The notes: generated from the sequence alone by a model not told the origin. A stretch of DNA of 64,000 nucleotides from Candidatus Algichlamydia australiensis (GCA_033977065.1 JAXCHI010000004.1:284724-348723), one strand, 5' to 3'. Counted from the stretch's first letter, positions 8,560 through 63,020 are shown. Numbers and translations: made by a program.

Positions 8560-8577
8560 AGTTTTGCTACTCATTTT

Positions 8578-8730: not shown

Positions 8731-8752
8731 ATTAATATATTTAAAATTATAT

Positions 8753-36446: not shown

Positions 36447-37382
36447 ATGAGTAATTCAATAGATCGTTACGATGTTGCAACATACGCACTAAATCTTGGT
36501 TTTGCTGCCGCGTCTGCTTGCGAGCACTCCCGTATAGGCAATGTATTAAGTAAATGGCGTATAAGTTTATTACTACTTGGAGCAACAACCTATGCTTTTA
36601 ATTATGTCCAATTTATTAGGACATTGTCCGATGACTTAAAAGATCAATTTAATCCTCACAAAAGCGAAGTCGATAACGATTTTTTTAAGTTCTCGCTTGC
36701 AATTACACCTATTTTTGCCGCTTTCTTGCTTCCAGTTGCTTGCCATTATTTGGGAAAGAGAGTAACTCACGCATTTCCTAGGGTTCAGTTGCAAGCGCCT
36801 AAGGGCTGTACTGCAGAATGGCTAGCTCCCTCTACATTTCACAACTTGGTTCAAGGATTTGCAGTGTCAAATGCACTTTTAAATCTTGCTGCAACTTTTG
36901 GTGGAAATGCGCACTCAAGATTATCTACAGGAGTTTTGTCTCTATTACACTTTGGCACAATACCTACACTTGCAAGTGGAAATCTAATTGAAGCGACTAC
37001 CACAAGAGATCATAGTGATGGAAAAACACAGTTCCTTTTCAGCTATATTTTTCGAGTAAAAAAACCTACTGATCCCTTGACCATAAGTGAAAGTGGTACA
37101 GTTTATTCCTATTCAAAAGTTATAGAAAATTTTTATAAAAATATTCAACAAATTAAACTTGATGATAGCACAGTTGAATGCTCTGAAAAAGCGATACCAA
37201 TTGTTGTTGGTGTGAATCCAACAATCACTAAAATCGTGAAATTGATTACCTATCACTTAACAGTTGCCAAAGACCTTATACCTGAAAAACTCAAAGGCTT
37301 TTCTCAACTCACTGCTTTTGTAAAAGATACGGGGCCCTTTGTTCCCAACGTCATCAAGGCAGCATCTATTGTGCCTTTGTAG
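36447..37382 (+). CDS. Hypothetical membrane protein, tandem paralog B
   Basis: 311 aa, with the same length class and N-terminal pattern as 35491-36432. Its RBS is ggaga. Its 3' end overlaps the uvrA 3' end by 17 nt. Confidence 0.6.
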   Translation: MSNSIDRYDVATYALNLGFAAASACEHSRIGNVLSKWRISLLLLGATTYAFNYVQFIRTLSDDLKDQFNPHKSEVDNDFFKFSLAITPIFAAFLLPVACHYLGKRVTHAFPRVQLQAPKGCTAEWLAPSTFHNLVQGFAVSNALLNLAATFGGNAHSRLSTGVLSLLHFGTIPTLASGNLIEATTTRDHSDGKTQFLFSYIFRVKKPTDPLTISESGTVYSYSKVIENFYKNIQQIKLDDSTVECSEKAIPIVVGVNPTITKIVKLITYHLTVAKDLIPEKLKGFSQLTAFVKDTGPFVPNVIKAASIVPL

Positions 37383-40300
37383 GTGAAATGATGTTTACTA
37401 CCTTTCCACCTTTCTCACCAGCTCCAGGCCCTAGCTCGATTTGGTAGTCAGCCGATTCGATGATATCGGAGTTGTGCTCGATCATAATAATGGTATGACC
37501 GCTATCGACAATTTTATGGAAAATTTTGAGGAGTTTTTCGATGTCGACACTGTGCAGGCCGATAGTCGGTTCGTCAAAGAGGTAGAGGGTGTGGCGTTTG
37601 GCTGGACGGACGAGTTCGCGAGAGAGACGCAGGCGCTGCGCTTCTCCGCCAGAGAGCGTTTGCACGCGCTGGCCTAAGGTGAGGTAGCCAAGTCCCACTT
37701 CTACTAAAACTTTTAGTGTCTTTTGAATTTTCGGAATTTTTGGGAGGAAGTCAATCGCTTCATTTACGGTGAGGTTGAGCAGTTGCCCGAGGTTTTTTCC
37801 TTTGTAGGTCACCTCAAGGGGAAGGGGAGCGAGGCGATTGCCATTACAGCTGTCACAGGTGATGGTCACAGCCGGCATTAGCTGTAGCTGGATTTTGCGT
37901 GTTCCCAGGCCCCAACACTTGCGACACATGCCTTTCATGTGGTTGTAGCTAAAATGGTAGGCTTTCAGGTTGCGCATGCGCGCTTCGGGTAGTTCAGCAA
38001 AAAAGCGGCGCAGAGGTGTAAGAAGATCGGAATAGGTGGTGATGTCAGCACGTGCAGTGTGTCCAATAGGAGATTGGTCAAGTGCAATGCATTTTTCGAT
38101 TTGCTTAAGCCCTGAGATTTTGCTTCCATGAATGGTAATGGTGTCGGGGGGTTGCCTATGCGTAAGCGCTTTTTCGACAGCTGGCCGTAGTAGGTGGTGC
38201 ATCAGCGTCGATTTTCCCGATCCTGAGACACCGGTAATGCAGGTAAAAATGTGCAGGGGAATGTCTAGAGAGATATTTTTAAGATTGTGCAGCGAAGCGT
38301 TTTCAATTTTTAAAACTTTTTTGGTAGGTTTGCGGTATTTGCAATCCACAGCGCTCTTTTCTCCAGAGAGGTAGGCGCCAGTAAGCGATTTCGGATCGCG
38401 TTTGATTTGCGCAATAGAGCCTTGTGCAATGATCTGCCCCCCTTTTTTTCCCGCTTCTGGGCCAAAATCGATGAGATAGTCGGCTGTGTTAATAGTAAGA
38501 GGGTCGTGCTCAACAAGAAGGAGAGTATTGCCGCTTTTACAGAGTTTTTTTAGTGCGCGGTTGAGTAGCGCGTTATTTTGCGGATGCAAGCCGATAGTGG
38601 GTTCGTCTAAAACATAGAGGCAGCCAGTTAGACCAGATCCAAGCTGACGCGCTAAATGAATGCGCTGTGTCTCCCCACCTGAAAGTGTAGGTGCGCTACG
38701 AGAGAGCGCGAGATACTCAAGTCCGATTTCCATCATAAATTTTAGGCGATGATCGATCTGCGAGAGCGTCTCATCGAGAAGGTTTTTCTTCTCTTTTGGA
38801 AGGGAGAGTTTTTTCAAGAATTGTACTGTTTGTGAGATGGGAAGCTCACACACCTCTGGAAGGGTTTTTCCTGCAACTTTTACCCCTCGTGCAAGGGGAT
38901 TCAAGCGCGCTCCGTTGCAGCTTGGACAGGGAGACTCGTCCATGTGTGGCAAGATCTCTTTGCGTAAATTATTTTTTGCCGCCTTTGCTCGCTTAGCAAA
39001 GAGCGTTTCAAAGCCGATCCATTTAAAAGAAATTTCTGCAAAAGTAAAGCTCTTTTCGCTACCTCTCATTAATAGTTTTTGCTGCTTATCTGAGAGGTCA
39101 CAGAGAGGGGTGTTGGGATCAATTTCTTCTTTTTCAAGAAATGCCTCAAAAAGCTCTAAAGCTTCATCAGAGAGACGATCTTTGCAGAGATAGTAGAAGA
39201 GTGTGATGGGAGGGCAACGCATGATTTTAGGAAAGCGAGTAAGATCTGCGCCCCACTGAATGCCAAGTCCCTGACAGTCAGGGCACATGCCCTCTTCAGA
39301 ATTGAAAGAGAAGGTGTGGGGTTTAATTTGGGGGTAGGAGCGTCCCGTTGAAGGAACCGCGAATTCTAAGTTAAAGAAAAGATCTTGATCATCAAGGGCT
39401 GCAATCAGTTTTCCTTCTCCACGCTCGCTCGCAAGGGAGACGGCCTCAAAGAGGCGTGGAGTGATGTCAGGTTTGATTACGATCCGATCGATGACAAGAT
39501 GGAACTCCTGTTTGACTCCGCGTGAGAAGGGGATTTCATCTTCCAAATCATAGGTCGTGCCATTGAGCCGCACGCGGCGAAACCCTTCTGCTTTGAGTCG
39601 CATAAGAAGAGAGGAAAAGTCTTCTCCATGCCGAAGAGTGAGTGGGGCTAAAATTTGCACACGCGTCTTTTCTGGAAGCTCTTGCAACTTCTTGCAAACA
39701 AACTCTTTGGTAATTGCTACAATTTTTTCACCCGTCTCAGGACAGAATGCTTCACCCAAATGCGCGTAAAGCAGGCGCAAATAGTCATAGACTTCTGTCA
39801 TGGTCCCAATCGTTGAGCGTGGATTGCCTGCGTGGCGCTTCTGTTCAATAGAAATTGCTGGAGATAGGCCCTCAATCAACTCTAATTTTGGCTTGGCCAT
39901 CTGCTTGACAAACTGGCGTGCGTAAGAGGGGAGAGACTCAATATAGCGACGCTGCCCTTCAGCATAAATTGTCTCAAAAGCAAGCGAACTCTTCCCCGAC
40001 CCAGAAGGTCCCGTACAAACCGTCATTTTGCCGCGCGGAATTGTGAGATCAATTCCTTTTAAATTATTTTGTTCTGCTCCCTTCACTACAATCTCTGTAT
40101 GCTTTGAGACTCTCTTTTTAGATGGTGCGCTGACTCTCTTTTTCTCCCCCAGCGCAATCCCAGTTGCCGTCTTTGCTTTGATGATCTGTTCCGGTGTGCC
40201 CTCAGCAAGAACATTTCCATCCTCCAAATCGATGACCCAATCGGCTACCTTGATCAAATCCAAATTGTGCTCAATAACAAGGACTGTATTGCCTTCGCTC

Positions 40301-42936
40301 ACAAGTCGCTCCAAAATGCGCAGCAAGCGGTCAATATCGCGAAAATGGAGACCTGTTGTCGGTTCATCTAAGATGTAAAGAGTTTGTCCCGTCGAGGGGC
40401 GAATGAGCTCTTTGGCAAGCTTGATGCGCTGCGCCTCCCCACCAGAAAGCGTGGTGGAGCTCTGGCCGATTTTCATGTAGCCGAGACCCACGTCGTTGAG
40501 AAGTTGCAATTTTTTGCGAATATTAGGAATTGCATCAAAGAACTCCAACCCTTCTCGCACACTCAAGCGCATCACGTCGTAGATCGATTTTCCCTTGTAA
40601 AGAACAGAGAGCGTTTTGGGATCAAAACGACGCCCGTCACAGAGAGGACAAGTTGCAAAACTATCCTCTAAAAAGTCCATATCGATACGTATCTGACCCA
40701 TTCCAGAGCATTTAGGACACGACCCCTCGCGCACATTAAAACTAAAACGACCTGAAGAAAACCCTTGCGCCTTAGCATCGGGAAGCGAAGCAAAGAGATT
40801 GCGAATATCGTCGAACAACTTCACATAAGTCGCAGGATTGGAACGCGGCGTGCGGCCAATGGGCGTTTGATCGATTGCAATAACCTTGTCCAGATGCTCG
40901 ATGCCCTCTAATGCCTTGTGCTTGGCGGGGCGTAGCAGCGATCGCTGTAATTTATTGGAAAGAGCAGGGTAGAGCGTATCAATAATCAGCGAAGATTTTC
41001 CCGCACCTGAGATTCCTGTTACTGCAACAAAAAGTCCAAGAGGAATTTCCGCATCCATCTTTTGCAAATTATTCGCCTCAGCGCCTCTGATCACTAGCCT
41101 TTTTTCTGTAGGCTTGCGGCGGCTTTTCGGAGTTGCAACTTTTTCTTTTCCCGAGAGGTAAGCACCCGTAACAGAGCGCGGGCTCTTGATCAGATCAGCC
41201 GGCTTGCCTTGTGCCACAATCTCACCGCCTTCAACACCTGCACCAGGACCCACATCGACAATCTCATCGGCCGCATAAATCGTCTCCTCATCGTGCTCAA
41301 CCACAATCACCGTGTTGCCTTGATCGCGCAAGTTCAAAAGCGTGCGAATGAGGCGCTCATTATCTGTCGGGTGCAAGCCAATTGAAGGCTCATCTAAAAT
41401 ATACGTAGTCCCAATCAGCCCCGCTCCAATTTGTGAAGCGAGGCGCACACGCTGCGCTTCGCCACCTGAGAGCGTTGCTGAAGTCCGCTCTAAAGAAATA
41501 TAGTGCAGGCCGACATCAAGGAGAAAATGCAGACGCCTCTGCAACTCCTTAATCATCTCAGCCCCGACTTTTTTCTCCATTTTGGAGAGCTTAAGCGCAT
41601 CAAAAAAATTTGCCGCCTCAGCAATTGTCATACTCGTGATATCGTGAATTGTCTTTTTTCCAAGCGTTGTCACCCGAGGGTAAGAGCGAATGCGCGCGCC
41701 CAGGCAGTCAGGACAGACCTGTTCGCTCATCATCTCTAGCATCCGCTGCTTGTACTTTTCGCTCTTAGCTTCATTAAAGCGTTTTTTAACCTCATGTAAA
41801 ACGCCCTTCCACTCCACATATTCAATCCAGCGCTTCTTAGACTTTGGATGGACAAACGTCATCTTCGTCCAGCGCTCCTCCGTCCCATGCAGAAAAATAT
41901 GCTTGGCACTCTTTGAAAGCTTTTTCCAAGGCTTCTTTACATTAAAATCAAAAATGCGGCCTAAATTGCGATAGATATTGCCCCAGAGTACCGTCTCAAA
42001 ACTGCCCGCAATTGCGATGCAGTCCTCACTAATACTCTTCTCTTCATCGATGATTTTTTCCTCATCAAAGACAAGAGTCGTGCCCAAACCCGAACAAGCC
42101 GGACACATGCCTTTCGGATGGTTAAAAGAGAAATCTTGCGGTTCAAGCGGGGGATAAGAAATTCCCGATTTAGCTGAATGCGCATGCGTAGAAAAAAGAT
42201 GTTCCTTGCCACTCTCCACTTCAAGACAGCTCATCACACCCTTGCCTAGCTCAAGAGCGCTACTTACCGCCTCTTTCAACCGCCCACGGTTTTCACGATC
42301 AACCTTCAATCGATCAACCACTAGATCGACATCGTGTGAGACACTTTTTTTAAGCGACATACCCTCTTCTAGCTCAACAATCTCGCCATCGACACGCACC
42401 CGCATGAACCCTTTGCGAAGTAGCTCCGCAAAATCTTCCTTAAACTCGCCCTTTTTACCCTTTGCAAACGGCGCCAATACAATTAGCTTTGTACCTGCCT
42501 TCAACTCACTAATCTGCTCTAAAATTTGCGTATTGCTCTGCGGCGTGACACGCTCCCCACTCTCCGGACAGTGCGCCACACCAATCCGCGCAAAAAGTAC
42601 CCGCAAATAGTCATAAATTCCCGTAATCGTCCCGACAGTTGACCTCGGACTCTTGTGCGTGGTCTTCTGCTCAATGGAAATTGTGGGAGAAATCCCGGTA
42701 ATCAGCTCCGCATCAGGCTTAGGGATATCGCCCATATACCGTCGCGCATACGTAGATAAAGATTCAATATAACGGCGCTGCCCTTCAGCATAGATCGTAT
42801 CAAACGCCAGCGAGCTTTTGCCTGAGCCAGAGACCCCGGTAAAGACAATCAATTGTCCCGGCTTTAGCTCTAAAGAAACTTTTTTAAGGTTATGTACAGA
42901 AACTTTTTGAAGTTGGATCTTAGGACTTTCGCTCAT
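37366..42936 (-). CDS. uvrA: Excinuclease ABC subunit A, double-length (two complete UvrA units fused)
   Basis: 1856 aa. GVSGSGKSSLAFDTIYAEGQRRYIESLS near residue 35 recurs as GPSGSGKSSLAFETIYAEGQRRYIESLP near residue 960. There are four ABC signature/Walker sets and zinc-finger Cys pairs. Confidence 0.95.
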   Translation of the reverse strand: MSESPKIQLQKVSVHNLKKVSLELKPGQLIVFTGVSGSGKSSLAFDTIYAEGQRRYIESLSTYARRYMGDIPKPDAELITGISPTISIEQKTTHKSPRSTVGTITGIYDYLRVLFARIGVAHCPESGERVTPQSNTQILEQISELKAGTKLIVLAPFAKGKKGEFKEDFAELLRKGFMRVRVDGEIVELEEGMSLKKSVSHDVDLVVDRLKVDRENRGRLKEAVSSALELGKGVMSCLEVESGKEHLFSTHAHSAKSGISYPPLEPQDFSFNHPKGMCPACSGLGTTLVFDEEKIIDEEKSISEDCIAIAGSFETVLWGNIYRNLGRIFDFNVKKPWKKLSKSAKHIFLHGTEERWTKMTFVHPKSKKRWIEYVEWKGVLHEVKKRFNEAKSEKYKQRMLEMMSEQVCPDCLGARIRSYPRVTTLGKKTIHDITSMTIAEAANFFDALKLSKMEKKVGAEMIKELQRRLHFLLDVGLHYISLERTSATLSGGEAQRVRLASQIGAGLIGTTYILDEPSIGLHPTDNERLIRTLLNLRDQGNTVIVVEHDEETIYAADEIVDVGPGAGVEGGEIVAQGKPADLIKSPRSVTGAYLSGKEKVATPKSRRKPTEKRLVIRGAEANNLQKMDAEIPLGLFVAVTGISGAGKSSLIIDTLYPALSNKLQRSLLRPAKHKALEGIEHLDKVIAIDQTPIGRTPRSNPATYVKLFDDIRNLFASLPDAKAQGFSSGRFSFNVREGSCPKCSGMGQIRIDMDFLEDSFATCPLCDGRRFDPKTLSVLYKGKSIYDVMRLSVREGLEFFDAIPNIRKKLQLLNDVGLGYMKIGQSSTTLSGGEAQRIKLAKELIRPSTGQTLYILDEPTTGLHFRDIDRLLRILERLVSEGNTVLVIEHNLDLIKVADWVIDLEDGNVLAEGTPEQIIKAKTATGIALGEKKRVSAPSKKRVSKHTEIVVKGAEQNNLKGIDLTIPRGKMTVCTGPSGSGKSSLAFETIYAEGQRRYIESLPSYARQFVKQMAKPKLELIEGLSPAISIEQKRHAGNPRSTIGTMTEVYDYLRLLYAHLGEAFCPETGEKIVAITKEFVCKKLQELPEKTRVQILAPLTLRHGEDFSSLLMRLKAEGFRRVRLNGTTYDLEDEIPFSRGVKQEFHLVIDRIVIKPDITPRLFEAVSLASERGEGKLIAALDDQDLFFNLEFAVPSTGRSYPQIKPHTFSFNSEEGMCPDCQGLGIQWGADLTRFPKIMRCPPITLFYYLCKDRLSDEALELFEAFLEKEEIDPNTPLCDLSDKQQKLLMRGSEKSFTFAEISFKWIGFETLFAKRAKAAKNNLRKEILPHMDESPCPSCNGARLNPLARGVKVAGKTLPEVCELPISQTVQFLKKLSLPKEKKNLLDETLSQIDHRLKFMMEIGLEYLALSRSAPTLSGGETQRIHLARQLGSGLTGCLYVLDEPTIGLHPQNNALLNRALKKLCKSGNTLLLVEHDPLTINTADYLIDFGPEAGKKGGQIIAQGSIAQIKRDPKSLTGAYLSGEKSAVDCKYRKPTKKVLKIENASLHNLKNISLDIPLHIFTCITGVSGSGKSTLMHHLLRPAVEKALTHRQPPDTITIHGSKISGLKQIEKCIALDQSPIGHTARADITTYSDLLTPLRRFFAELPEARMRNLKAYHFSYNHMKGMCRKCWGLGTRKIQLQLMPAVTITCDSCNGNRLAPLPLEVTYKGKNLGQLLNLTVNEAIDFLPKIPKIQKTLKVLVEVGLGYLTLGQRVQTLSGGEAQRLRLSRELVRPAKRHTLYLFDEPTIGLHSVDIEKLLKIFHKIVDSGHTIIMIEHNSDIIESADYQIELGPGAGEKGGKVVNIISPTKAQ

Positions 42937-42994
42937 AGGGGGAAGTATAAGAGATTTCTGTACTTTTATGCGAATTTAGATTATATTACTTCTT

Positions 42995-44545
42995 ATGAAT
43001 ATCGTGCCAGTAAGTCTAGAAGCAACTAAAAATTATTTTAATATAGATCGCGCAGGATGGAGCCAAACAGCAGGGAAGGTGAGTTCCTTTATCTTCTCAC
43101 ATAAGAGGGGGCTGTTGGGGTTGACTCTTATTCTCTTCCCATTTGTACTTGTCGCAAAGAAATATTATAACATTACAGACGTGTGGCCTCATCAAGTATT
43201 AATTGCGAATATTTTATATTCTTTACGTAATTATGTGCCGGAAAATTATCGCGTAGGGATTGAGCGGTATGTTGGTGAAGTCTATCCGGCAAATAAATTC
43301 TCTGAAGAAGATAGGGAAGAATTACAAGAGTGGGTTAATCAAGCACAACCTAGGCAAGCACAAGCTAGAGTAATTGGAATAATTGATTCTCAGGAATCAC
43401 GTCAGAGACTTATGAACTGTTTGCTACGAGGTAGTAAGGAACTGGAGTATGCACCTTCAAGTTTTTTAGAATTAAACGTTTTTGATAAGCTTTCGCACCT
43501 CCAGTCAATAGAATTTAATTCAGATGAAAAACTGGATCTTCCAGAGAAGATTCTAAATTTAAAAAATCTGCGTAGTTTGCGACTTGAAAATTTTAGAATT
43601 CCAGAAAATTTTGAATTTGAAAGACTTTCTAAAATCCAACAGCTTTCTCTAATTAAGTGCGATATTTCAAATGATGTACACTTGGAAAAACTCTTTTTTT
43701 TAAAAAAACTTCGTATTTCCGAATCTAAACTTGAAGCATTACCTTTTTTACCATTAAAAAATTTAGTTACATTAGATCTTTATTCCCTTGATCTTGCTGT
43801 TATTCCTGAATGGATCGGAGGTTTATCAAAATTAGCTAGTTTAACATTGACTAAATGCGCAGCTTTAAAAAGCCTACCAGAAGAAATTTATCGGCTGCCA
43901 AAGGGATGCAAAATAAACATATGGGCTTCTGGACTGGCTCATGCCCCTATTTTTGAGCAGACGACAAAAGAAGGTTATTCAGGACCTAAATTCTCTACAG
44001 AAAGTAGGACTAGTTCTTTCCCTTTTAGAAAGACTCCTTTTTTAAGATTTGGAGCTAGCTGGCTTGATGTAGTCAAAGAGCTTGACAAATGGATTCATGT
44101 AAATAAGGAGAATTCTCTTAGCCGTATAAGATTTCGAGATGAAATCATAAATAGAAGTTTTATTTTTGAGAATTTTAGTCAGGGTGACGAACTAGAGAAT
44201 AAAGCATACATTGACATGTTGGCATTTATTTTGAAAAAGAGTCGAGACACGGGTAAACCTTTTCAATCTTATTTTGAGTTTTGCCCAAGAAGCGTTGTTG
44301 AGTATGAAAGAACTCTCGAAATATTGGAATATATAGCAGATAAATATGCAGGCTCATACACAATGGCATTTTATAACTATAATCATCTGCCACTAGAAAT
44401 AGATTTTGAAAAATTAGGAGGGTTGCTTTATCAAAGAGAACGTTGCAGTAGGTTGTCGATTGAAGGATTTACCTTACGAAACTTCGGTTATCTCGATAGT
44501 CTACCGATCGAAAAATTATCTCTAGAAAATTGTGAAATTTTGTAA
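42995..44545 (+). CDS. Leucine-rich-repeat protein with an N-terminal TM anchor, paralog 1
   Basis: 516 aa. The TM segment is LLGLTLILFPFVLVA. LRRs include LKNLRSLRLENFRIPENFEFERLSKIQQLSL and LVTLDLYSLDLAVIPEWIGGLSKLASLTL. Confidence 0.8.
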   Translation: MNIVPVSLEATKNYFNIDRAGWSQTAGKVSSFIFSHKRGLLGLTLILFPFVLVAKKYYNITDVWPHQVLIANILYSLRNYVPENYRVGIERYVGEVYPANKFSEEDREELQEWVNQAQPRQAQARVIGIIDSQESRQRLMNCLLRGSKELEYAPSSFLELNVFDKLSHLQSIEFNSDEKLDLPEKILNLKNLRSLRLENFRIPENFEFERLSKIQQLSLIKCDISNDVHLEKLFFLKKLRISESKLEALPFLPLKNLVTLDLYSLDLAVIPEWIGGLSKLASLTLTKCAALKSLPEEIYRLPKGCKINIWASGLAHAPIFEQTTKEGYSGPKFSTESRTSSFPFRKTPFLRFGASWLDVVKELDKWIHVNKENSLSRIRFRDEIINRSFIFENFSQGDELENKAYIDMLAFILKKSRDTGKPFQSYFEFCPRSVVEYERTLEILEYIADKYAGSYTMAFYNYNHLPLEIDFEKLGGLLYQRERCSRLSIEGFTLRNFGYLDSLPIEKLSLENCEIL

Positions 44546-44583
44546 TTTTCAGACTTTTTCAAAAAAAATATTATAATATCCCT

Positions 44584-44655
44584 AAAGCCAATCAATTGTC
44601 CCATTTTTAGCTGCAAATAAATTTTTTTAAGTTGGACCTTAGGACCTTCGCTCAT
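44584..44655 (-). pseudogene. Relic of the uvrA 5' end (first ~24 codons), duplicated with the LRR gene unit
   Basis: The minus-strand atgagcgaaggtcctaaggtccaacttaaaaaaatttatttgcagctaaaaatgggacaattgattggcttt aligns with uvrA codons 1-32, with a 24 nt internal deletion. The flanking promoter region is also duplicated. Confidence 0.8.
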
Positions 44656-44712
44656 AGAGGAAGTATAAGAGATTTCTGTACTTTTATGCGAATTTAGATT
44701 ATACTACTTCTT

Positions 44713-46281
44713 ATGAATATCGTGCCAGTAAGTCTAGAAGCAACTAAAAATTATTTTAGCATAGATCGTGCAGGATGGAGCCAAACAGCACGACATGTGG
44801 GTTCCTTTGTGTTAAGCCACAAAAGGGAGCTGTTGGGAATTACCATTGCTTTCCTTGCGGTTGCTGGGGCTGCATCATTCGTTTATCAACAATATACAGA
44901 TGTTTGGCCGCATCAACTGTTTATTGCAAATCTCTTGTACCCCTTACGCAATTTCGTTCCGCAAAAAATAAAAGGAGGAATTGAAAGGTATAACAGCGAA
45001 GTCTATCCGGTGCACAAATTTACAGAAGAAGATCGACAAGAATTGCAAAATTGGGTGGAAAGAGTTCCCCTTGGTGTACATCACATGGGCGGAGCTAGAA
45101 GGGAGATCCGCGAAACTATAATGGAAGAGGTTCTTGCCGGTAAAAAGAGCCTGTCGAAGGAAGTTCCAGTAAATTTTTTACGGCTAAACGTGTTTGATAA
45201 ACTTTCCCATCTTCAAAAAATAAAAATTGTTTCGGGAGGAACGAAAATCGATCTACCTGAAGCGATCAAAAAATTAAAAAATCTCCAAACCTTACATCTA
45301 AACAAGTTAATAATTCCCGAAGATTTTCAATTTGCAGAATTTCCTAAATTGGAGTGCCTTTCTTTAGAATTTTGTGACGTTCCGTGTGGCCTTCAACTAG
45401 AGAATCTTAAGCATTTAAAGAAGCTTAGTCTTAGTTATAATTGTACACTTGGTGCACTCCCTTCAATTCCATCGAAAAATTTAGTATCGTTGGAGCTTTG
45501 TTGCACACTTTTGGCTTCTGTTCCAACTGCAGTCGGGGGCTTCTCAAAGTTAACTTTTTTAGATTTGAGCCATAATAGAGAAATGAAAAGCCTACCTGAG
45601 GAAATTTATCAATTATCAAAGAAATGTAAAATATTAATAGGGTGGTCTGCTATTGCTCTTGCGCCTGTCTTTCAAGAGATAATAAAAGAAGGCTATTCAG
45701 GGCCTCAATTTTTTGTTAATAGCACGCCTATTGATGAAGGCGATTATCATCTTCCTTTATCTGAAAATAAAAGTCATTCATTTTTGTCATTGGGATCTAA
45801 TTGGCTTGAAATAGTCAGAGAGCTTGATAAACTTGTTCATGACAACGTCCCTCTTCATAGATCTTTTCGAGAAAAAATTATACATAACAAATTGACCGAT
45901 TATAAATTTAGGCTAGGGGAGCATATGCGACAAGATAAGAAAGTTATCGACATGCTGGTATATATTTCGAATAACTGCGAAGCAGGAAGCCCAATACGTA
46001 ACTGTCACTTTCAATTTGAACCAATGTGTGTTTCAGATACGGAACAATCCATTAAAATAGCAAATTATATTATCGATAATTACAAAGAAAAATATTCATT
46101 CTCATTTAGGAAGCTTGGCCCCAGACCTCTAGAGATAAATTTAAGAGAATTGGTGGGCCTAGCGAATCAAACAGAACTCTGTAGTAGCCTGTCGATTAAA
46201 GGATTTACCTTGAGGAATTTTGATTATTTGGACACTTTATCGGTAGAAAAGCTTTCAATAGAAGATTGTGAAATTTTGTAA
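44713..46281 (+). CDS. Leucine-rich-repeat protein with an N-terminal TM anchor, paralog 2
   Basis: 522 aa, collinear with paralog 1. Of its first 26 codons, 25 are identical at the protein level, and it has the same C-terminal ending, C(E)IL. Confidence 0.8.
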   Translation: MNIVPVSLEATKNYFSIDRAGWSQTARHVGSFVLSHKRELLGITIAFLAVAGAASFVYQQYTDVWPHQLFIANLLYPLRNFVPQKIKGGIERYNSEVYPVHKFTEEDRQELQNWVERVPLGVHHMGGARREIRETIMEEVLAGKKSLSKEVPVNFLRLNVFDKLSHLQKIKIVSGGTKIDLPEAIKKLKNLQTLHLNKLIIPEDFQFAEFPKLECLSLEFCDVPCGLQLENLKHLKKLSLSYNCTLGALPSIPSKNLVSLELCCTLLASVPTAVGGFSKLTFLDLSHNREMKSLPEEIYQLSKKCKILIGWSAIALAPVFQEIIKEGYSGPQFFVNSTPIDEGDYHLPLSENKSHSFLSLGSNWLEIVRELDKLVHDNVPLHRSFREKIIHNKLTDYKFRLGEHMRQDKKVIDMLVYISNNCEAGSPIRNCHFQFEPMCVSDTEQSIKIANYIIDNYKEKYSFSFRKLGPRPLEINLRELVGLANQTELCSSLSIKGFTLRNFDYLDTLSVEKLSIEDCEIL

Positions 46282-46445
46282 TTTTCAGATTTCCTAAAAA
46301 ATATTTTAATATCCCTAAAGGCAATCAACTTTCCTAGATTCAATTATAACGAAAGTTAGTGAATTCAGATCAGAAGAGCTTTAATCCTATTGGAAGTATT
46401 GGGAATCTCTATACTTTATTACAAGTTCATGTTAAAATGTTCTCT

Positions 46446-47402
46446 ATGAATGCTACAAATTTAACTGAAACAAGTCTAAAAATATCAAAAAATATTTTTA
46501 ATTTTGATCATGCTGCATGGAGCCAGACGGCAGAGAAAGTGGGCTCTTTTTTCCATTCACACAGATTTCTAATGGCTAAAATAGTGTTGGGAGTGACTCT
46601 TTTAAATATTGTTACTATTATGGGCGCTGGATCTCTGATATATAGAAAAATGCGAGGTGTTTGGCCACATCAAGTACTTACTGCAAATATTTTATATCCT
46701 CTTCGTAATTATACACCTGAAAGTTGGAAAACAATCATTGAGAACTATAATGACGAAATCAACCCGGCAAATAAATTTACAGCAGAAGACAGAGAAGAAC
46801 TACAAGAGTGGGTTGATCAAGCAGAAGAGCGACCTGATAGAGGTGCAGGGATTCCTGATTCTCGGGATTTACGCCAAGGACTCATGAATCGTGTGCTAGA
46901 AGGAAAGAAGAATTTAGATTTTTATTTACGTAGGCCTTTAAACTATTGGGAGCAGGGGGGGCTTCCTGATGAAAGAGAAATAGTTGTTCCTCTAAGTTTT
47001 TTAGATTTAAAAGTATTTAATAAATTATCTCATATTTCTGATATTAGCATTAAATCAAATGAAAAACGCGATCCACCAGAGGAGATTTTAGATCTAAAAA
47101 ATCTTCGTAGTTTGACTCTTATAAATTGTACAATACCAGAAAACTTTGAGTTTGAAAAACTCCCTAAATTGGAAAAACTTTTCTTTTGGCGGTGCGATAT
47201 TCCAGATATTTTGTATTTGAAAAAGGTAAGCAATTTGCATCAAATTGGTATTGCAAATTGTACAATACCAGAAAACCTTCAGTTTGAAGAACCCTCTAAA
47301 TTTGAAAAACTTTTCATTGTTGATTGCAATATTCCAGATATTACGTTTTTGGAAGGGTTAAGCCATTTGCGTGGAATTGATATTGAAGATTGTATAATTT
47401 AA
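46446..47402 (+). CDS. Leucine-rich-repeat protein with an N-terminal TM anchor, paralog 3 (shorter, ends inside the LRR region)
   Basis: By alignment to the paralog N-termini (MNATNLTETSLKISKNIFNFDHAAWSQTAEKV vs MNIVPVSLEATKNYFNIDRAGWSQTAGKV), the start is ATG 46446 rather than 46359. It lacks the ~200 aa C-terminal region of paralogs 1 and 2. Confidence 0.7.
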   Translation: MNATNLTETSLKISKNIFNFDHAAWSQTAEKVGSFFHSHRFLMAKIVLGVTLLNIVTIMGAGSLIYRKMRGVWPHQVLTANILYPLRNYTPESWKTIIENYNDEINPANKFTAEDREELQEWVDQAEERPDRGAGIPDSRDLRQGLMNRVLEGKKNLDFYLRRPLNYWEQGGLPDEREIVVPLSFLDLKVFNKLSHISDISIKSNEKRDPPEEILDLKNLRSLTLINCTIPENFEFEKLPKLEKLFFWRCDIPDILYLKKVSNLHQIGIANCTIPENLQFEEPSKFEKLFIVDCNIPDITFLEGLSHLRGIDIEDCII

Positions 47403-47473
47403 ATTGCCATTCTGTAACCTAGAGGATCTTCCGCTTCAGATTACAGTTTTTTGTATAGTATTTGTTAGTTCAA

Positions 47474-47517
47474 CTGAAGTTGCTACCCAGTTTCTCCTAT
47501 AGAGAGGGGGATTTTTT
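47474..47517. repeat. Family-C repeat, half copy
   Basis: ctgaagttgctacccagtttctcctatagagagggggatttttt matches the reverse complement of 54931-54985 (ctcaagttgccactcagtttctcctatggagagagggattttt). Confidence 0.7.
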
Positions 47518-47617
47518 CTTTGCATATTCTCCGCAGATAATTAATCATATTAAATAATTGAATTCTTGTAACTTATCGCTTTTTTAGTTAAAATATTCCC
47601 ATAACAAGGTTACTCCT

Positions 47618-48310
47618 ATGCTAACTGTAAATGAATACTTTAATCACTCTTGTACGCTCGCCAACGCAGGAAAAGAGCGCCTGGTCTCCTATTTTAAACC
47701 TGTATCAAGCTATGCAGAAACGTTTTTTAGTGAAGGAGCGAAAGAGACAATTGCTAAAAATCGCGTTCTAATTATAACAGTTCTTTCAATTACAGCCCTA
47801 GGATTAACAGGGCTATCTGTTTATTACATTGCAAAGCGGGTCTTCAGTAAAACAACTTCCGATGCCAAACCTTCTCTTAAGAGGAGCCCAGAGTATGACA
47901 AAAATACAGGCAGGTATTCTAGTGCCGGGTGCTCTTTTGCTCTTCCTAATGGAATAAATCCCAAAGAGGAGGAGATAACATTTATCCTTCCGAGTGGTGT
48001 AAAGCTGACGTTTTTTCAATATAAAGACCGTACAAAGTCCACAATTGATGATGACTTGAGCGCGTATACTACTCATTATCAGAAAGGCTTGAATCAAGAA
48101 CCCAAAAAAGGTTCTCTTGATAACGGACTTAAGTATCTCGCAATCTCTCCGATTCATGTTGAAGGAAATCCCTATTTAAAATCCTATACTATCTACAACG
48201 GAGAGGATAGATATAGGTTTACGGCGACTCATATAGAGCAAGCAAAGATAAAAGAGAGTATTGAAATGAATGCAATTTTAGAATCATTTACCCTTACTAA
48301 GGAGAGCTAA
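47618..48310 (+). CDS. Hypothetical single-TM protein, family member 1 of 3
   Basis: 230 aa. The pattern FFSEGAKETIAKNRVLIITVLSITALGLTGLSVYYI is shared with the next two genes. Confidence 0.65.
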   Translation: MLTVNEYFNHSCTLANAGKERLVSYFKPVSSYAETFFSEGAKETIAKNRVLIITVLSITALGLTGLSVYYIAKRVFSKTTSDAKPSLKRSPEYDKNTGRYSSAGCSFALPNGINPKEEEITFILPSGVKLTFFQYKDRTKSTIDDDLSAYTTHYQKGLNQEPKKGSLDNGLKYLAISPIHVEGNPYLKSYTIYNGEDRYRFTATHIEQAKIKESIEMNAILESFTLTKES

Positions 48311-48311
48311 A

Positions 48312-49016
48312 ATGGCAGCTATAGGAACTACACTTTCCATAGCAGGGAGCGCTGCTCAAGCTTTACCTGGAGCAAACACTAACCAAGCAAAGACAATTGC
48401 TAACAGATTCTTCAACAATGATATAAAAAAAACATTTGTGCAAAACCGCACTCTTATTTTCGCTACTCTTACAGTAGTAACTTTGTCATCTACTGTACTC
48501 GCTATCTATTTTGTTTATCAAAAAAATGTAACCCTCAATAAAACAGATAAAGAAAATGAGTTCACGATTCAAATCAGTGGAAATCGTGTTTCTGTTTCTC
48601 CCTCAGGTTTTACTTTTCAGATTCCTTCAAGTACAAAACAACACGCAAATCAGAAATTTTTGCTACCTGAAGATTTAACACTACAATTTTCAGTCTCTAA
48701 GACGAACAAGAGCATTGGTGATTATGTGGAAGAATTTAAAGATAATGCATGTTCAGGAAAGACGGAAAAACCGATAAGTGTAAATGGAAGATTAAGAACT
48801 TCATACGCAGGAGAGTTTGTTCCACAATTGTTTAGCGTTAATGGGGTTCAGGTTCTAGAACGTCGCCCTAAAAAAGTGCTTGAGGGAGTGTTTGAGCGGA
48901 GCTATTACATAGTAGGTGCAGGTCGCCTCTACCTACTAAAATTTTCTCACGAAAGTGATCCGTCAAAACTAGAAACTTTACAAAATGTTTTAAAATCAAT
49001 AGTTTTTCATAATTAG
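48312..49016 (+). CDS. Hypothetical single-TM protein, family member 2 of 3
   Basis: 234 aa with FFNNDIKKTFVQNRTLIFATLTVVTLSSTVLAIYFV. Its ATG lies 1 nt after the previous stop and has the RBS aaggagag. Confidence 0.65.
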   Translation: MAAIGTTLSIAGSAAQALPGANTNQAKTIANRFFNNDIKKTFVQNRTLIFATLTVVTLSSTVLAIYFVYQKNVTLNKTDKENEFTIQISGNRVSVSPSGFTFQIPSSTKQHANQKFLLPEDLTLQFSVSKTNKSIGDYVEEFKDNACSGKTEKPISVNGRLRTSYAGEFVPQLFSVNGVQVLERRPKKVLEGVFERSYYIVGAGRLYLLKFSHESDPSKLETLQNVLKSIVFHN

Positions 49017-49025
49017 AGACTTAAG

Positions 49026-49748
49026 GTGACAACTGTAGGAAATATTATTACAGAAGCAAGCAAAGCCACTCAGGGTTTACCTGCAGCAAAAATGGACCGA
49101 GCGAGTTTTGTTGCTAGTACGTTTTTTAGCGGAGGTATGCGCAACTTTATTGCTGAGAATAGATCATTCGTTATTGCGCTTTCTGCAGCCACGCTATTTG
49201 GTACAGCTTATTTAGTTCATAAAATGATATCTGAAAAAACTGGAGTTAAGTATAACATCCAATTTGACCTTCCTGACGGAGTAAAAAAGGCTGATTTAGA
49301 AAAATCTATCAATCTGGAAGTGGCCAAAGAGAGTGCAAAAAAAGAAATTACCGCTCGTCAAAAAGATGGCATTGTTTTTACTGATGAAGAAATAGCCTTT
49401 CTTTGTGCCGATCTGATAGAAATACAGCTATTTAAAAAGCCTAGTGCAAAAGAGTTATATGTATTTTGTTCCATCCAAAGCAGAGATCAAACGTTTGATT
49501 TTTCACAAATTCATACTGTTTGGACGAAATTCTATGGAAAAGATTTTGTAGAATCAACGCTCTTAACTTTGACAAGTGGGGAAAAAGCCGTCCGTTTTAG
49601 GGTGTCAGGTAAAGAAGCTTCTGAAATTGTCATGATTGAGAAAGGGGGGTTCTTTTACGGGCTCTGTTTTCCTTCTTCTGAAGTTCAGCTATTAACGTTT
49701 CGGGCTGATGTAACAAATCTGATCAATTCAATCACATTTCCCGAATAA
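49026..49748 (+). CDS. Hypothetical single-TM protein, family member 3 of 3
   Basis: 240 aa with a GTG start and FFSGGMRNFIAENRSFVIALSAATLFGTAYLV. Confidence 0.6.
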   Translation: MTTVGNIITEASKATQGLPAAKMDRASFVASTFFSGGMRNFIAENRSFVIALSAATLFGTAYLVHKMISEKTGVKYNIQFDLPDGVKKADLEKSINLEVAKESAKKEITARQKDGIVFTDEEIAFLCADLIEIQLFKKPSAKELYVFCSIQSRDQTFDFSQIHTVWTKFYGKDFVESTLLTLTSGEKAVRFRVSGKEASEIVMIEKGGFFYGLCFPSSEVQLLTFRADVTNLINSITFPE

Positions 49749-49798
49749 AATTCTGAATAGAAGCAAAAAGCGTTTTCTGTAATTAGCTCAAAAGTCTG

Positions 49799-50025
49799 TT
49801 TAGGGGTGTTCTCTTAATTTATGAATTTGAGGGGTGGTTTTCTTTTTAGAAGAAATTTATTATAGAGGGTAAAAGCAGCTTGATAAAACTCAAGTTACTA
49901 CCTAGTCTCTCCAGAAGGGGATGGGGGTAGCAACTTGAGTTTGATAAAATCGGTGAAATCTGAATAGCAAATCTACTCAGAAAGAAAACCGAACAGCAAG
50001 TTCAAAAATTCAGAGAACACCTCAA
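49799..50025. repeat. ~227 bp long imperfect palindrome with a family-C core, abutting the pyk start codon
   Basis: The outer arms are tttaggggtgttctcttaattt and aaattcagagaacacctcaaa. The inner arms are ggttttcttttt and agaaagaaaacc. The core is aaactcaagttactacc-tagtctctccagaaggggatgg-ggtagcaacttgagttt. Confidence 0.75.
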
Positions 50026-51825
50026 ATGCACCGTAGAACAAAAATTGTTTGTACTATAGGCCCCGCCGTCAGCAGCGAAGAGAAGATCGATCAGCTGATT
50101 TCCGCAGGAATGAATGTGGCGCGCTTAAACTTTAGCCATGGGACCCGTGAGGATCACGCGAAAACAATTGCTAATTTAAAAAAACTGCGTAAAAAGCGTG
50201 AAATTCCTCTAGCTATCATGCTGGATACGAAAGGACCTGAGATTCGTGTAGGCAAGTTAATCCAAGAGCAGCTTGAGTTAAAGAAGAGAGACAAACTTAA
50301 GCTAGTAAAAGGTGAGGCAAAAGAGAGCTTAGAGGTGCCAATTACGCCCGCTTCTGTTGTAGATGATTTAGAAGAGGGAATGCATGTACTCTTTGATGAT
50401 GGCTACATCAGTGCAAAGGTTATAGAGAAAAGCAAAGACTTTGTAACAGTTCAAATAGAGAATCCTGGCGTTCTGCTTAGCAATAAAGGAATCAATATCC
50501 CCCATGAAAATATTGATTTACCTGCGATGACAGAACAGGATATGGCAGACATTCGGTTTGGGTGTGAGCAGGATGTGGATATTATTGCCGCATCGTTTAT
50601 TCGCTCTGCAGAGCATATTCTTGAGATCAAACAGCTGCTGGCAAAAGAGAAGGCGCAGGATATCATGGTCATGGCCAAGATAGAGAGCGCTGAGGGGGTC
50701 AACCACTTTGACTCTATTCTCCAGGCAGCAGATGGAATTATGGTAGCAAGGGGCGATCTAGGCGTAGAATTGCCTCTTAAAGATGTGCCGCGCTTGCAGA
50801 AAATGATGATTCGTAAGTGCTACCATTCAGGCAAGTCTGTGATCATTGCGACGCAAATGCTAGAGTCGATGATCACAAATCCAAGACCGACGCGAGCAGA
50901 AGTCTCTGATGTAGCCAATGCGATCTATGATAGTGCATCTGCTGTGATGCTCTCAGGAGAGACCGCTGTTGGTAAGTACCCAATTGAAGCGGTTAAAATG
51001 ATGCGCAGCGTAATTGAAGAGGCTGAGAGCGATTTTGACTACCGCAGTTTTTTCTACAGTGACACAAGAGGGGATTTTTATGATGTGGCGACTTCTGTTG
51101 GCTTAGCATCGGTAAAAACAGCCTATGCGATCGATGCAAAAGCTATTTTTGTCTTTACTCATAGTGGTAATGCGGCGCGTACTATTGCCCGTTTGCGACC
51201 TTATCAGCCGATCATTGCACTCTCTCCTACACAGAAAACTTATCATCAGATGGGCGTAAATTGGGGGGTCGTCCCATTTTTTGGTGAGGTTAAGGATTTG
51301 AAGAGCGGATTCGCCACTCTGAGCTGTTTTGCACTGAAGAAAAAGCTTACGCGCTATGGAGATTTGGTAGTCGTTTCAGCAGGATCGCCCTTTGGGATTT
51401 CAGGAACAACTAATACAATGATTGTGGAAAATATTGGAGATGTTCTAGTGCGTGGGTACGCGACAAAAAAAGGCAAACGCACAGTTGGGAAAGTGCTCAT
51501 TGTGCTCTCTACAGAAAATAAAAGACAGTACCATATACAAGGCAAAGTTGCGGTGCTCACTGCTTGTGATACAGAGTATGAGAAGCTTCTGCATGGAACA
51601 GCTGGAATCATTTTACAGAATCATCCAGACGATTTAGAGTCGGAAAAATGTGCCAAGGCACTGGCAAAAAACCTTAATGTTCCTCTGATCACGCGTGCTG
51701 ATAACGCCTCCACAATTCTGCAAGAAGGACAACTGGTCACTCTTGATCCGCAAAAAGGTCTTGTTTTCAAAGGATCGTTTTCAACAGACGATGAGATGAT
51801 TCATCAAGTTTGTTGTGATGATTGA
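50026..51825 (+). CDS. pyk: Pyruvate kinase with a C-terminal PEP-utilising-enzyme mobile-domain-like extension
   Basis: 599 aa with RRTKIVCTIGPA, NFSHG and MVARGDLGVE. The last ~115 aa (GKVAVLTACD...GIILQNHPD...LVTLDPQKGLVF) resemble the swivelling domain found in Bacillus-type PK. Confidence 0.9.
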   Translation: MHRRTKIVCTIGPAVSSEEKIDQLISAGMNVARLNFSHGTREDHAKTIANLKKLRKKREIPLAIMLDTKGPEIRVGKLIQEQLELKKRDKLKLVKGEAKESLEVPITPASVVDDLEEGMHVLFDDGYISAKVIEKSKDFVTVQIENPGVLLSNKGINIPHENIDLPAMTEQDMADIRFGCEQDVDIIAASFIRSAEHILEIKQLLAKEKAQDIMVMAKIESAEGVNHFDSILQAADGIMVARGDLGVELPLKDVPRLQKMMIRKCYHSGKSVIIATQMLESMITNPRPTRAEVSDVANAIYDSASAVMLSGETAVGKYPIEAVKMMRSVIEEAESDFDYRSFFYSDTRGDFYDVATSVGLASVKTAYAIDAKAIFVFTHSGNAARTIARLRPYQPIIALSPTQKTYHQMGVNWGVVPFFGEVKDLKSGFATLSCFALKKKLTRYGDLVVVSAGSPFGISGTTNTMIVENIGDVLVRGYATKKGKRTVGKVLIVLSTENKRQYHIQGKVAVLTACDTEYEKLLHGTAGIILQNHPDDLESEKCAKALAKNLNVPLITRADNASTILQEGQLVTLDPQKGLVFKGSFSTDDEMIHQVCCDD

Positions 51826-51847: not shown

Positions 51848-52297
51848 ATGTTTGTACAGTCGTATGTCGAATTAAATGAAACAGAAAGTCTTGTCTATTA
51901 TTTAAAAACAGCAGATGATTTTGATCCCACATCTCAAAGTGCTGTAGCGGCACTTTGGACTGCTTTCGAAAAGAGTTATTTTGACGTTCAGGATGTTTTA
52001 ATGAAGCAAGGCGTTGCAAATGCTGATTATCGAGATGATGAAGGAAATCACCCTATTCATCTTTTAGCAGAAAAGGGCAATACCTCTGTAGGCGTCTGTT
52101 TACAAAATGGAATTCCTATAGATCTTGAAAATAGTGCTGGAATGACACCTCTACAATTGGCTGTTGCCCATAACCAGAAAGATATGGTTCAGTATTTGAT
52201 TAATAATAAGGCGAAGATTCCTGATAATGAGACAGATCAAAAGATCCAAGAGCTGCTTCAGGAAAAACCGCATCACTTTTGTTGCCACCTTTTATAA
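51848..52297 (+). CDS. Ankyrin-repeat protein
   Basis: 149 aa. GNHPIHLLAEKGNTSVGVCLQNG and GMTPLQLAVAHNQKDMVQYLINN are ANK consensus-like. Confidence 0.75.
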   Translation: MFVQSYVELNETESLVYYLKTADDFDPTSQSAVAALWTAFEKSYFDVQDVLMKQGVANADYRDDEGNHPIHLLAEKGNTSVGVCLQNGIPIDLENSAGMTPLQLAVAHNQKDMVQYLINNKAKIPDNETDQKIQELLQEKPHHFCCHLL

Positions 52298-54818: not shown

Positions 54819-54985
54819 CGAAACTCAAGTTGCTACCCCTTTCCCCCTTTGGAGAGACCCTTTTTGCGATCTACTTAGTTTAAAATTTCAGAAATGCTTG
54901 ATAAACATTCCTTCAATTTGAAACGAAACATCTCATCAAAAATCCCTCTCTCCATAGGAGAAACTGAGTGGCAACTTGAGTTTCG
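54819..54985. repeat. Family-C long palindromic element (expanded copy)
   Basis: The arms are cgaaactcaagttgc and gcaacttgagtttcg. The inner inverted pair is cccctttggagagaccc and ccctctctccataggag. Confidence 0.75.
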
Positions 54986-63001: not shown

Positions 63002-63020
63002 TGGGTAATGATTTCATAAT

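Follow-up and report, generated by a model that had tools for sequence, protein, structure and literature searches.

A lineage-specific region of leucine-rich repeat and orphan membrane protein genes between uvrA and pyk in the dinoflagellate symbiont Candidatus Algichlamydia australiensis

The region considered here comprises six open reading frames (ORFs) on the plus strand that occupy the 7,089 bp between the divergent genes uvrA and pyk in a stretch of 64,000 nucleotides from Candidatus Algichlamydia australiensis (GCA_033977065.1, JAXCHI010000004.1:284724-348723; this whole 64-kb stretch is called the window below, and all positions are counted from its first nucleotide). To our knowledge, this organism is the first, and the only known, chlamydia in a photosynthetic host, namely the coral-symbiont alga Cladocopium. 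It was described as a deep-branching member of the Simkaniaceae that lives as a symbiont of this photosynthetic dinoflagellate (Maire et al. 2024, PMC11317633). The left flank of the region is formed by uvrA (37366-42936, minus strand), which encodes a 1856-aa double UvrA (Pfam UvrA_inter, UvrA_DNA-bind, and ABC_tran), and the right flank by pyk (50026-51825, plus strand), which encodes a pyruvate kinase of 599 aa (Pfam PK and PK_C). The first three genes in between, LRR1 (SNF33_07190 / EFCAOE_07230, 42995-44545, 516 aa), LRR2 (SNF33_07195 / EFCAOE_07235, 44713-46281, 522 aa), and LRR3 (SNF33_07200 / EFCAOE_07240, 46446-47402, 318 aa, identical to the NCBI length), encode leucine-rich repeat (LRR) proteins with one transmembrane (TM) segment. 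They are followed by three genes for small single-TM (sTM) proteins, namely sTM1 (SNF33_07205 / EFCAOE_07245, 47618-48310, 230 aa), sTM2 (SNF33_07210 / EFCAOE_07250, 48312-49016, 234 aa), and sTM3 (SNF33_07215 / EFCAOE_07255, 49026-49748, 240 aa). LRR2 is 100 % identical to the NCBI protein SNF33_07195 from the metagenome-assembled genome of the organism, and the small genes agree exactly in position with contig_4 of the published annotation, whose coordinates exceed those of the window by 284,723. ORF calls and Pfam matches of the flanking genes confirmed this arrangement, which an original prediction for this DNA had put forward. The region is lineage-specific, lies at a hotspot between ancestrally adjacent genes, and is made of eukaryote-like and orphan membrane proteins.

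The LRR proteins are 48-50 % identical to one another. From its N-terminus, LRR1 consists of a tail, a TM segment (residues 39-57), a helical N-domain, about seven cysteine-type LRRs (residues ~150-320), and a C-terminal alpha/beta region; LRR2 has the same architecture, and LRR3 is without the C-terminal half. By the Kyte-Doolittle scale, each of the six proteins of the region contains one hydrophobic segment of ~19-24 aa, 39-70 residues from the N-terminus, which is borderline in sTM3. In Pfam, LRR2 matches LRR_4 (33.8 bits) and LRR_8 (31.2 bits; cut-off 27) as well as LRR_14 (40.0 bits; cut-off 40), and LRR1 matches LRR_R13L1-DRL21 (27 bits; cut-off 27); LRR3 stays under the cut-offs (23.3 bits), yet it is 48 % identical to LRR1. 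In the AlphaFold2 (AF2) model of LRR1, residues 130-320 form a solenoid with predicted local distance difference test (pLDDT) values of 82-93. A structure search with this model gave 110 PDB matches at E <=1e-3, and all 50 listed are LRR proteins; the structures matched by the LRR region include the LRRs of XopL, IpaH2.5, and SspH1. The closest curated bacterial models in NCBIfam are the LRR domains of XopL, XopAE, and XopAC (E 1e-10 to 1e-12), which are matched in the LRR region only and with 31-45 bits as compared to cut-offs of 450-600. LRR1-3 carry the LRR fold and are members of the leucine-rich repeat superfamily. The prediction of three TM-anchored LRR proteins was upheld by Pfam, AF2, and hydrophobicity, with one correction: the mechanically called ORF of LRR3 begins with a GTG at 46359, inside a remnant of uvrA (see below), and the alignment of the paralogues places the homologous start at the ATG at 46446. 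LRR3 moreover contains an internal tandem duplication (47123-47386, plus strand) of 2 x 132 nt, that is, two 44-aa double-LRR units that are 80 % identical.

Homologues were sought in 5.8 billion proteins by word-indexed search and in 1.84 billion representatives by exhaustive HMMER search. Full-length LRR2 found only LRR1 and generic LRR proteins from plants, cyanobacteria, and metagenomes (E 5e-10 or weaker), a chimeric profile of the LRR-less N- and C-terminal domains matched the three paralogues only, and sTM profiles in both collections returned only the sTM proteins and one spurious match to the TM segment. Outside this organism, no homologue of either family was detected, and the earlier view that the six are not core genes stands. 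NCBIfam yielded no match for the sTM proteins, and none of the six proteins matched a PADLOC defence-system model. In the LRR N-domain, the sequence VWPHQVLIANILYSL resembles, by eye, the F-box pattern LPxEILxxIxxxL; this reading was rejected, as it found no support in Pfam at E up to 10 or in a PDB profile search. In addition, F-box, BTB, RING, and U-box domains were absent from the Pfam matches, both when the full proteins were searched (E up to 0.1) and when the N-domains were searched in isolation (E up to 10), and a profile search of the LRR N-domain against PDB sequences found no F-box protein.

The intergenic sequences of the LRR array record how it formed. Positions 42840-42941, which contain the first ~33 codons of uvrA on the minus strand, are repeated between the LRR genes, and the repeats cross gene borders. 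The first uvrA 5' remnant (44583-44660, minus strand) is 84 % identical to 42840-42941 but lacks 24 nt; its translation, MSEGPKVQLKK-IYLQLKMGQLIGF, corresponds to residues 1-11 and 20-32 of UvrA, the 8 codons in between being deleted (the authentic UvrA N-terminus begins MSESPKIQLQKVSVHNLKKVSLELKPGQLIVF). The second remnant (46316-46390, minus strand) is more decayed, with 67 % identity and in-frame stops. The 58-nt spacer that separates uvrA from LRR1 was copied as well and follows the uvrA remnants, so that a separate copy of the upstream region precedes each of the three LRR genes. Because uvrA 5' remnants and the spacer recur between the LRR genes, the founder LRR gene stood beside uvrA already and was duplicated in place. 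In this course of events, a founder gene for an N-terminally membrane-anchored LRR protein beside uvrA was duplicated twice in situ, in units of 1.72-1.74 kb that included the first ~33 uvrA codons and the shared promoter spacer, which gave rise to LRR1, LRR2, and the shortened LRR3, each predicted to be a separate transcription unit. As judged from these repeats, the LRR array arose by in-situ duplication, and the uvrA remnants are inconsistent with its arrival as a block. The Logan contig SRR26803925_13542 (locus L001), from an independent short-read assembly, contains sTM1-3, pyk, and the downstream genes as exact matches; it breaks inside LRR3, so that support for the LRR array comes from the long-read metagenome-assembled genome alone.

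The LRR paralogues are old and under purifying selection, since the synonymous divergence (dS) of the paralogues exceeds 1, and the whole-gene ratio of nonsynonymous to synonymous divergence (dN/dS) is 0.31-0.43 (LRR2 vs LRR1: dN/dS 0.35, dS 1.2). For the N-domain that follows the TM segment, dN/dS between LRR1 and LRR2 falls to 0.13. The first 60 codons of these two genes have a dS of 0.49, as compared to >1.2 in the remainder, and the corresponding stretches that comprise the upstream region and these codons (42941-43175 and 44659-44893) are 84-90 % identical at the nucleotide level. This 5' similarity suggests either gene conversion or constraint on a common promoter and N-terminal signal.

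The sTM proteins are 20-27 % identical to one another and match mutually at E 1e-9 to 1e-4 in a database of 173 ORFs, with sTM3 being the most divergent paralogue. As predicted, this trio of ~235-aa proteins shares a conserved motif in front of the TM segment, the spacing of which had to be corrected: it reads FF-x10-NR, not FF-x9-NR, followed by one hydrophobic segment. Accordingly, sTM2 is laid out as an N-terminal tail, FF-x10-NR, a TM segment (residues 47-69), and a C-terminal domain (residues 85-234). It was the sole member of the trio to be modelled, with the three paralogues as alignment for AF2, and its best model reached a mean pLDDT of 62, with values of mostly 70-87 in the C-terminal domain. 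In a Foldseek search of this model against the PDB, the first 14 matches were PsbP and CyanoP structures (E 4.6e-6 to 1.2e-4, 13-20 % identity, TM-score up to 0.57 when normalised to the target). The next matches belong to the same superfamily, namely BT_1490, the PsbP-like NADH dehydrogenase-like (NDH) subunit PNSL1, LpqN, SciW/EagT6, Tsi3, DcrB, PA94, and Mog1, and almost all of the top 45 matches are PsbP/Mog1 superfamily members. Since this match list is consistent, the fold class should be right provided that the model is. Several results weigh against the assignment: only one of the five sTM2 models was good (mean pLDDT of the others 47-51), Pfam gave no PsbP (PF01789) match for the isolated C-terminal domains at E up to 10, a search of the sTM profile against PDB sequences found no PsbP, and hhalign of the sTM family with three PDB-verified plant PsbP sequences yielded a probability of 0.5 %. 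Only the N-terminal hairpin was aligned by hhalign, with the register that would be expected (GFTFQIPSS vs GFKLLVPSKW, P = 0.11). A sequence-level link between the sTM proteins and PsbP was consequently rejected, as Pfam, the PDB-sequence profile search, and hhalign were all negative. Going by the model, the C-terminal domain probably, albeit with moderate confidence, adopts an alpha-beta-alpha sandwich of the PsbP/Mog1/DcrB type. By its structure matches, the sTM2 model points to the PsbP/CyanoP/Mog1/DcrB/DUF1795 superfamily, whose sandwich fold is marked by a hairpin at the N-terminus and a helix at the C-terminus, and the N-terminal tether recalls lipid-anchored CyanoP. Unlike in CyanoP, the anchor of the sTM proteins is a TM helix and not a lipid; membership is not seen at the sequence level, and the fold stems from a model of moderate confidence.

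Consensus scans, from which the layout of promoters and terminators was derived, place the two families in different units. LRR3 is followed by a terminator-like hairpin and a 215-nt spacer with a promoter-like site (47566-47594) ahead of sTM1. Because of these elements, the LRR and the sTM families are predicted to be separate transcription units. With spacers of just 1 and 9 nt, sTM1-3 are predicted to form a tightly packed three-gene operon with sTM1 as its first gene. Only their position links the LRR and sTM families, and nothing was found in favour of the cooperation between them that the original prediction had considered.

Both ends of this putative operon lie close to members of a dispersed, intergenic palindrome family, whose 17-nt core GGTAGCAACTTGAGTTT, arranged around a CTCTCC...GGGGA centre, has 9 matches in the window as compared to 0.29 expected. 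A half copy (47471-47521, plus strand) lies downstream of LRR3 and contains the terminator-like stem (47492-47511) followed by a T-run, without a strong fold of its own (z 0.03). A full copy (49880-49948, plus strand) folds with z -4.5; further copies are found at 54821-54983, with a 129-nt insert between the arms, and at 62948-63003, and weaker matches at 7367 and 32967. The half and the full copy lie on either side of the sTM operon, inverted relative to each other. The original prediction had placed both at the end of the region; the family is real and the full copy indeed lies near the end, whereas the half copy marks the boundary between the LRR and sTM genes. The full copy constitutes the inner part of a nested inverted repeat of 227 nt (49800-50026, plus strand), whose outer arms (49800-49845 and 49981-50026) are unique in the window. 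This repeat folds with z -6.8 relative to shuffled sequences, and in Rfam it gave only a chance match to a miRNA precursor (E 0.9, 22.5 bits vs a gathering score of 195). The last nucleotide of its right arm is the A of the pyk ATG, and a transcript continuing from the sTM operon into pyk would thus be expected to have the translation-start region of pyk sequestered.

In its composition, the region stands out from its surroundings. Its GC content of 35.5 %, as compared to 42.9 % in the rest of the window, is the minimum among 570 sliding windows of 7.09 kb, and the GC content at third codon positions (GC3) is 0.23-0.34 in its genes versus 0.36-0.52 in core genes. Windowed GC and codon composition thus bear out the AT-rich character that had been noted before. 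Low GC3 is, however, common to every orphan gene of the window, and the deviation is therefore a sign of young or fast-evolving genes in this genome and not of one foreign block. Of the signatures of a genomic island, deviant composition and absence from relatives were found, and the hallmarks of mobility were not: there is no tRNA in the 64-kb window, Pfam identified no integrase, transposase, or other mobility domain in the six proteins, and a repeat scan of the window revealed no flanking direct repeat or target-site duplication at the borders. The earlier description as an inserted island calls for qualification, as tRNA, integrase, and transposase are missing and the LRR array grew by in-situ duplication instead of arriving as a block.

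Whether uvrA and pyk are neighbours elsewhere was assessed in 80 chlamydial pyk loci from GTDB species representatives (+/-10 kb; numbered with the prefix L), in each of which the uvrA N-terminus was located; these 80 best loci contained no Chlamydiaceae. Orthologues of uvrA that are 54-63 % identical adjoin pyk in 49 other chlamydial loci. In 27 of these 49 informative loci, the two genes are direct divergent neighbours with a gap of 27-153 bp, for example, on the complete chromosome of a Simkania sp. (79 bp) and in SZAS-8 (153 bp), whose pyk is the most similar to that of the window (63 % identity). In the other 22 loci the orientation is the same, but the genes are 0.3-6.5 kb apart, and adjacency is lost in ~10 loci with sufficient upstream sequence. 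The 7,089-bp gap of the window is the largest of those compared. It follows that adjacency in divergent orientation is the ancestral state of uvrA and pyk in environmental chlamydiae, for which the adjacency argument of the original prediction is borne out.

The cargo of the 22 filled gaps is heterogeneous, and most of its ORFs are without a Pfam domain. Identified genes encode, for example, a TPR protein together with a DUF7945 protein, two Legionella-type outer-membrane proteins, a phospholipase D, a SulP transporter, an epimerase, and an AAA/DUF4143 protein. In AT content, the cargo almost always exceeds the locus that carries it, and it frequently consists of local tandem paralogue pairs, such as the two Legionella_OMP genes of L064 or, in L038, two pairs of orphans (the gaps surveyed for tandem or shared cargo include L006, L007, L008, L031, L038, L064, and L068). 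No homology was found between the six proteins of the window and the cargo of other uvrA-pyk gaps. Since unrelated, mostly orphan cargo of 0.3-6.5 kb separates uvrA from pyk in these 22 loci, the divergent gap between the two genes acts as a recurrent accessory-gene hotspot across environmental chlamydiae. A Pfam-negative orphan family of ~550-600 aa is common to L007, L008, and L031 (E 1e-34 to 1e-88) and may have occupied this site for longer. A comparable phenomenon is the plasticity zone of the Chlamydiaceae, a chromosomal site between conserved genes that collects lineage-specific cargo of the host-interaction type. The likeness lies in the defined site between conserved genes at which such cargo gathers, and it extends to phospholipase D, a typical plasticity-zone cargo that is present in the uvrA-pyk gap of L030. 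The uvrA-pyk gap differs from the plasticity zone in that it is another site, is far smaller (up to 7 kb), and belongs to environmental chlamydiae.

Further orphan and repeat-protein genes occur in the neighbourhood. Beyond the other side of uvrA lie two further species-specific orphans (35491-36432 and 36447-37382, plus strand; 313 and 311 aa), which correspond to the singletons EFCAOE_07215 and 07220. They have one TM segment each (~residues 80-110) and a GC3 of 0.27-0.31, lack Pfam and NCBIfam matches, and are paralogous neither to each other nor to the genes of the region; uvrA is thus embedded in orphan genes on both sides. Immediately 3' of pyk follows an ankyrin-repeat gene (51848-52297, plus strand, 149 aa, GC3 0.28), so that pyk is bordered by eukaryote-like repeat genes on both sides. 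This ankyrin gene has a match, and a weak one, in just one of the 80 pyk loci (L040: 31 % over 85 aa), ~4 kb downstream of the respective pyk and on the opposite strand. A second AT-rich patch of 34-37 % GC (5873-9667, plus strand) consists of three consecutive orphan ORFs (487, 361, and 304 aa) with a GC3 of 0.27-0.30 and without a convincing Pfam domain, and may represent another species-specific cluster.

Taken as a whole, a hotspot region with an LRR array grown in situ, an sTM operon, and membrane-tethered modules appears to be the best explanation, and we regard it as reasonably probable. A lineage-specific accessory-gene region has accumulated between two core genes that were ancestrally adjacent and divergent; downstream of the LRR array, behind the terminator-like hairpin, a separate predicted operon of old, very divergent paralogues encodes small single-pass membrane proteins. 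We infer that both families serve as protein-binding modules that are tethered to a membrane and exposed at its interface. Where this interface lies is a matter for a more tentative proposal, to which we give slightly less than even credence: the proteins may be exported by type III secretion, for which the ~40-residue N-terminal tails would serve as signals, and may be anchored in the inclusion membrane or another host-facing membrane, with the LRR solenoids binding host proteins. For the small proteins, a place in the envelope facing the periplasm would be equally plausible. The type III-dependent, host-facing reading is preferred because of the analogy with the type III-secreted LRR families of the Parachlamydiaceae, for which Domman et al. 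(2014, PMC4209131) reported lineage-specific expansion, tandem arrays, purifying selection, and type III signals that are functional in a Shigella assay.

The families in question, NEX1 of Neochlamydia and PEX1 of Protochlamydia (PMC4209131), resemble the LRR trio in being lineage-specific proteins of environmental chlamydiae, in their tandem duplication and purifying selection, and in a conserved region of unknown nature between the N-terminal part and the LRRs. In contrast to NEX1 and PEX1, the trio has three members only, its N-terminal tail, single TM segment, and novel helical domain replace F-box, BTB, or RING domains, LRR1 and LRR2 bear an extra C-terminal region of 190 aa, sequence homology is absent, and the bearer belongs to the Simkaniaceae and is the symbiont of a photosynthetic host. 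With Inc proteins, the proteins of the region have in common an N-terminal tail, some tens of residues long, ahead of the hydrophobic segment, as well as species-specific, often clustered, AT-rich genes without known homologues; unlike the bilobed hydrophobic domain of Incs (~40-60 aa), there is one segment of ~19-24 aa. The type III effectors XopL, XopAE, and XopAC of Xanthomonas, IpaH, and SspH are similar in the LRR region by model and structure matches; unlike in the XopL, IpaH, and SspH effectors, an E3-ligase (NEL, XL-box) or other catalytic domain is absent and a membrane anchor is present. Several points count against the preferred explanation: the hydrophobic segment is single and not bilobed as in Incs; Pfam detected no F-box, BTB, or RING domain, in contrast to known chlamydial LRR effector families; in bacteria, the PsbP/Mog1/DcrB fold occurs mainly in periplasmic proteins or lipoproteins, which favours an envelope location of the sTM proteins; and positive-inside charge counts disagree between paralogues, so that no consistent topology emerges from the sequences. 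An identity as Incs in the defined sense is ruled out by the lack of a bilobed hydrophobic domain, and membership in the F-box/BTB-LRR families by the lack of such domains.

The main rival, especially with regard to the small proteins, is that both families are envelope proteins, in which the TM segment acts as an N-terminal signal-anchor and the LRR and PsbP/DcrB-like domains are periplasmic and serve the envelope biogenesis or stress response of the bacterium itself. Bitopic inner-membrane proteins typically have a single TM segment and a large C-terminal domain, as is the case here, the fold neighbours that follow PsbP are bacterial envelope proteins (DcrB, LpqN, BT_1490, Tsi3, and MTC28), and CyanoP itself is N-terminally lipid-tethered and lumenal (PMC12661325). 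Yet housekeeping envelope proteins are not expected to be restricted to one species, the N-terminal tails of 39-70 residues exceed what a signal-anchor needs, and the chlamydial LRR proteins tested so far bear type III signals (PMC4209131); an envelope role is considered possible but less probable. A different idea starts from the fold matches to SciW and EagT6 (E 1e-3 to 5e-3, TM-score 0.43-0.56, target-normalised). Eag/SciW-type chaperones bind the N-terminal TM helices of secreted toxins, and since three members of each family adjoin on one strand, the three sTM proteins with their PsbP/DUF1795 fold might each serve one TM-anchored LRR protein in a coupled module. This appears the least credible of the readings considered, as Eag chaperones are soluble whereas the sTM proteins have their own TM segment, the PsbP matches are 100-fold better than the Eag matches, the two families are predicted to be separate transcription units, and their ages differ, the sTM paralogues being 20-27 % and the LRR paralogues 48-54 % identical. 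The fold matches also invite a scenario in which the symbiont of an alga evolved or captured the sTM proteins as PsbP/CyanoP-like factors on a membrane tether and secretes them to act on the thylakoid-lumen machinery of the dinoflagellate, i.e., in the assembly or repair of photosystem II (PSII). If true, they would be the first bacterial effectors to mimic a photosynthesis factor. The peridinin plastid of the host is of the red lineage. CyanoP, a PSII assembly factor, resides in the lumen and is tethered there by a lipid at its N-terminus, and it was in the green lineage, not in the red one, that PsbP arose as a subunit of PSII (PMC12661325). Owing to this mismatch of lineages, direct mimicry of PsbP is unlikely, and we consider the scenario as a whole highly improbable.

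Two further explanations concern the origin of the genes. The region could be evolutionary debris, that is, fast-evolving duplicated orphans under relaxed selection at a permissive site, with little or no function. Such a view draws on the GC3 of 0.23-0.34, which resembles that of all other orphan ORFs in the window, on the truncation of LRR3 and the leftover uvrA fragments, on the heterogeneous cargo gathered by the same site in other lineages, and on the contribution of non-adaptive birth-and-death to families of this kind (Domman et al., PMC4209131). It is difficult to reconcile with six intact frames despite saturated synonymous divergence (dS >1), with the low dN/dS of the LRR genes, above all in the post-TM N-domain of LRR1 and LRR2, and with the operon-like spacing kept by the sTM genes, and is accordingly deemed improbable. 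The same verdict applies to horizontal transfer of a block from another organism into the site between uvrA and pyk. It is suggested by the sharp step in composition at both borders, the absence of the genes from all relatives compared, and the dispersed palindromes that bracket the sTM block, but the 5.8 billion proteins searched contained no donor-like homologue beyond the generic LRR matches, neither tRNA, integrase, transposase, nor target-site duplication was found, low GC3 is shared by every orphan of the window, and the LRR array demonstrably grew in place.

The six genes as such were known to be species-specific. In the genome paper, the LRR trio EFCAOE_07230/07235/07240 constitutes OG0007647, one of 20 species-unique orthogroups, with one member labelled "disease resistance protein K13459" (AlphaFold pLDDT 62.7), and the small genes EFCAOE_07245/07250/07255 are among 189 singletons, with pLDDT values of 31-42 and without a structural match (Maire et al. 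2024, PMC11317633, Tables S11 and S12). Its text discusses neither family; ankyrin, WD40, and TPR proteins are tallied there, whereas LRR proteins are not. Genes of the kind that the PsbP-mimicry scenario calls for were sought in that study, and the sTM trio would have been missed because of the low pLDDT of its models (PMC11317633). The module, which the original prediction called undescribed, is so only in part: its genes had been catalogued, whereas the locus, its history, and the structural assignment are new. The overall pattern, lineage-specific expansion of repeat proteins in chlamydiae, is well known, and for specialists the present results are useful more than surprising. They turn six anonymous "hypothetical proteins" into a defined locus with a reconstructed history, comprising a founder LRR gene, two in-situ duplications, and an older operon, and the PsbP/Mog1-like fold would provide a concrete structural lead for the small proteins. 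Across chlamydiae, the uvrA/pyk gap offers a fixed landmark for finding lineage-specific host-interaction genes by comparative genomics. Because Ca. Algichlamydia australiensis is the first chlamydia shown in a photosynthetic host, its species-specific genes are the obvious place to seek adaptations to an algal host.

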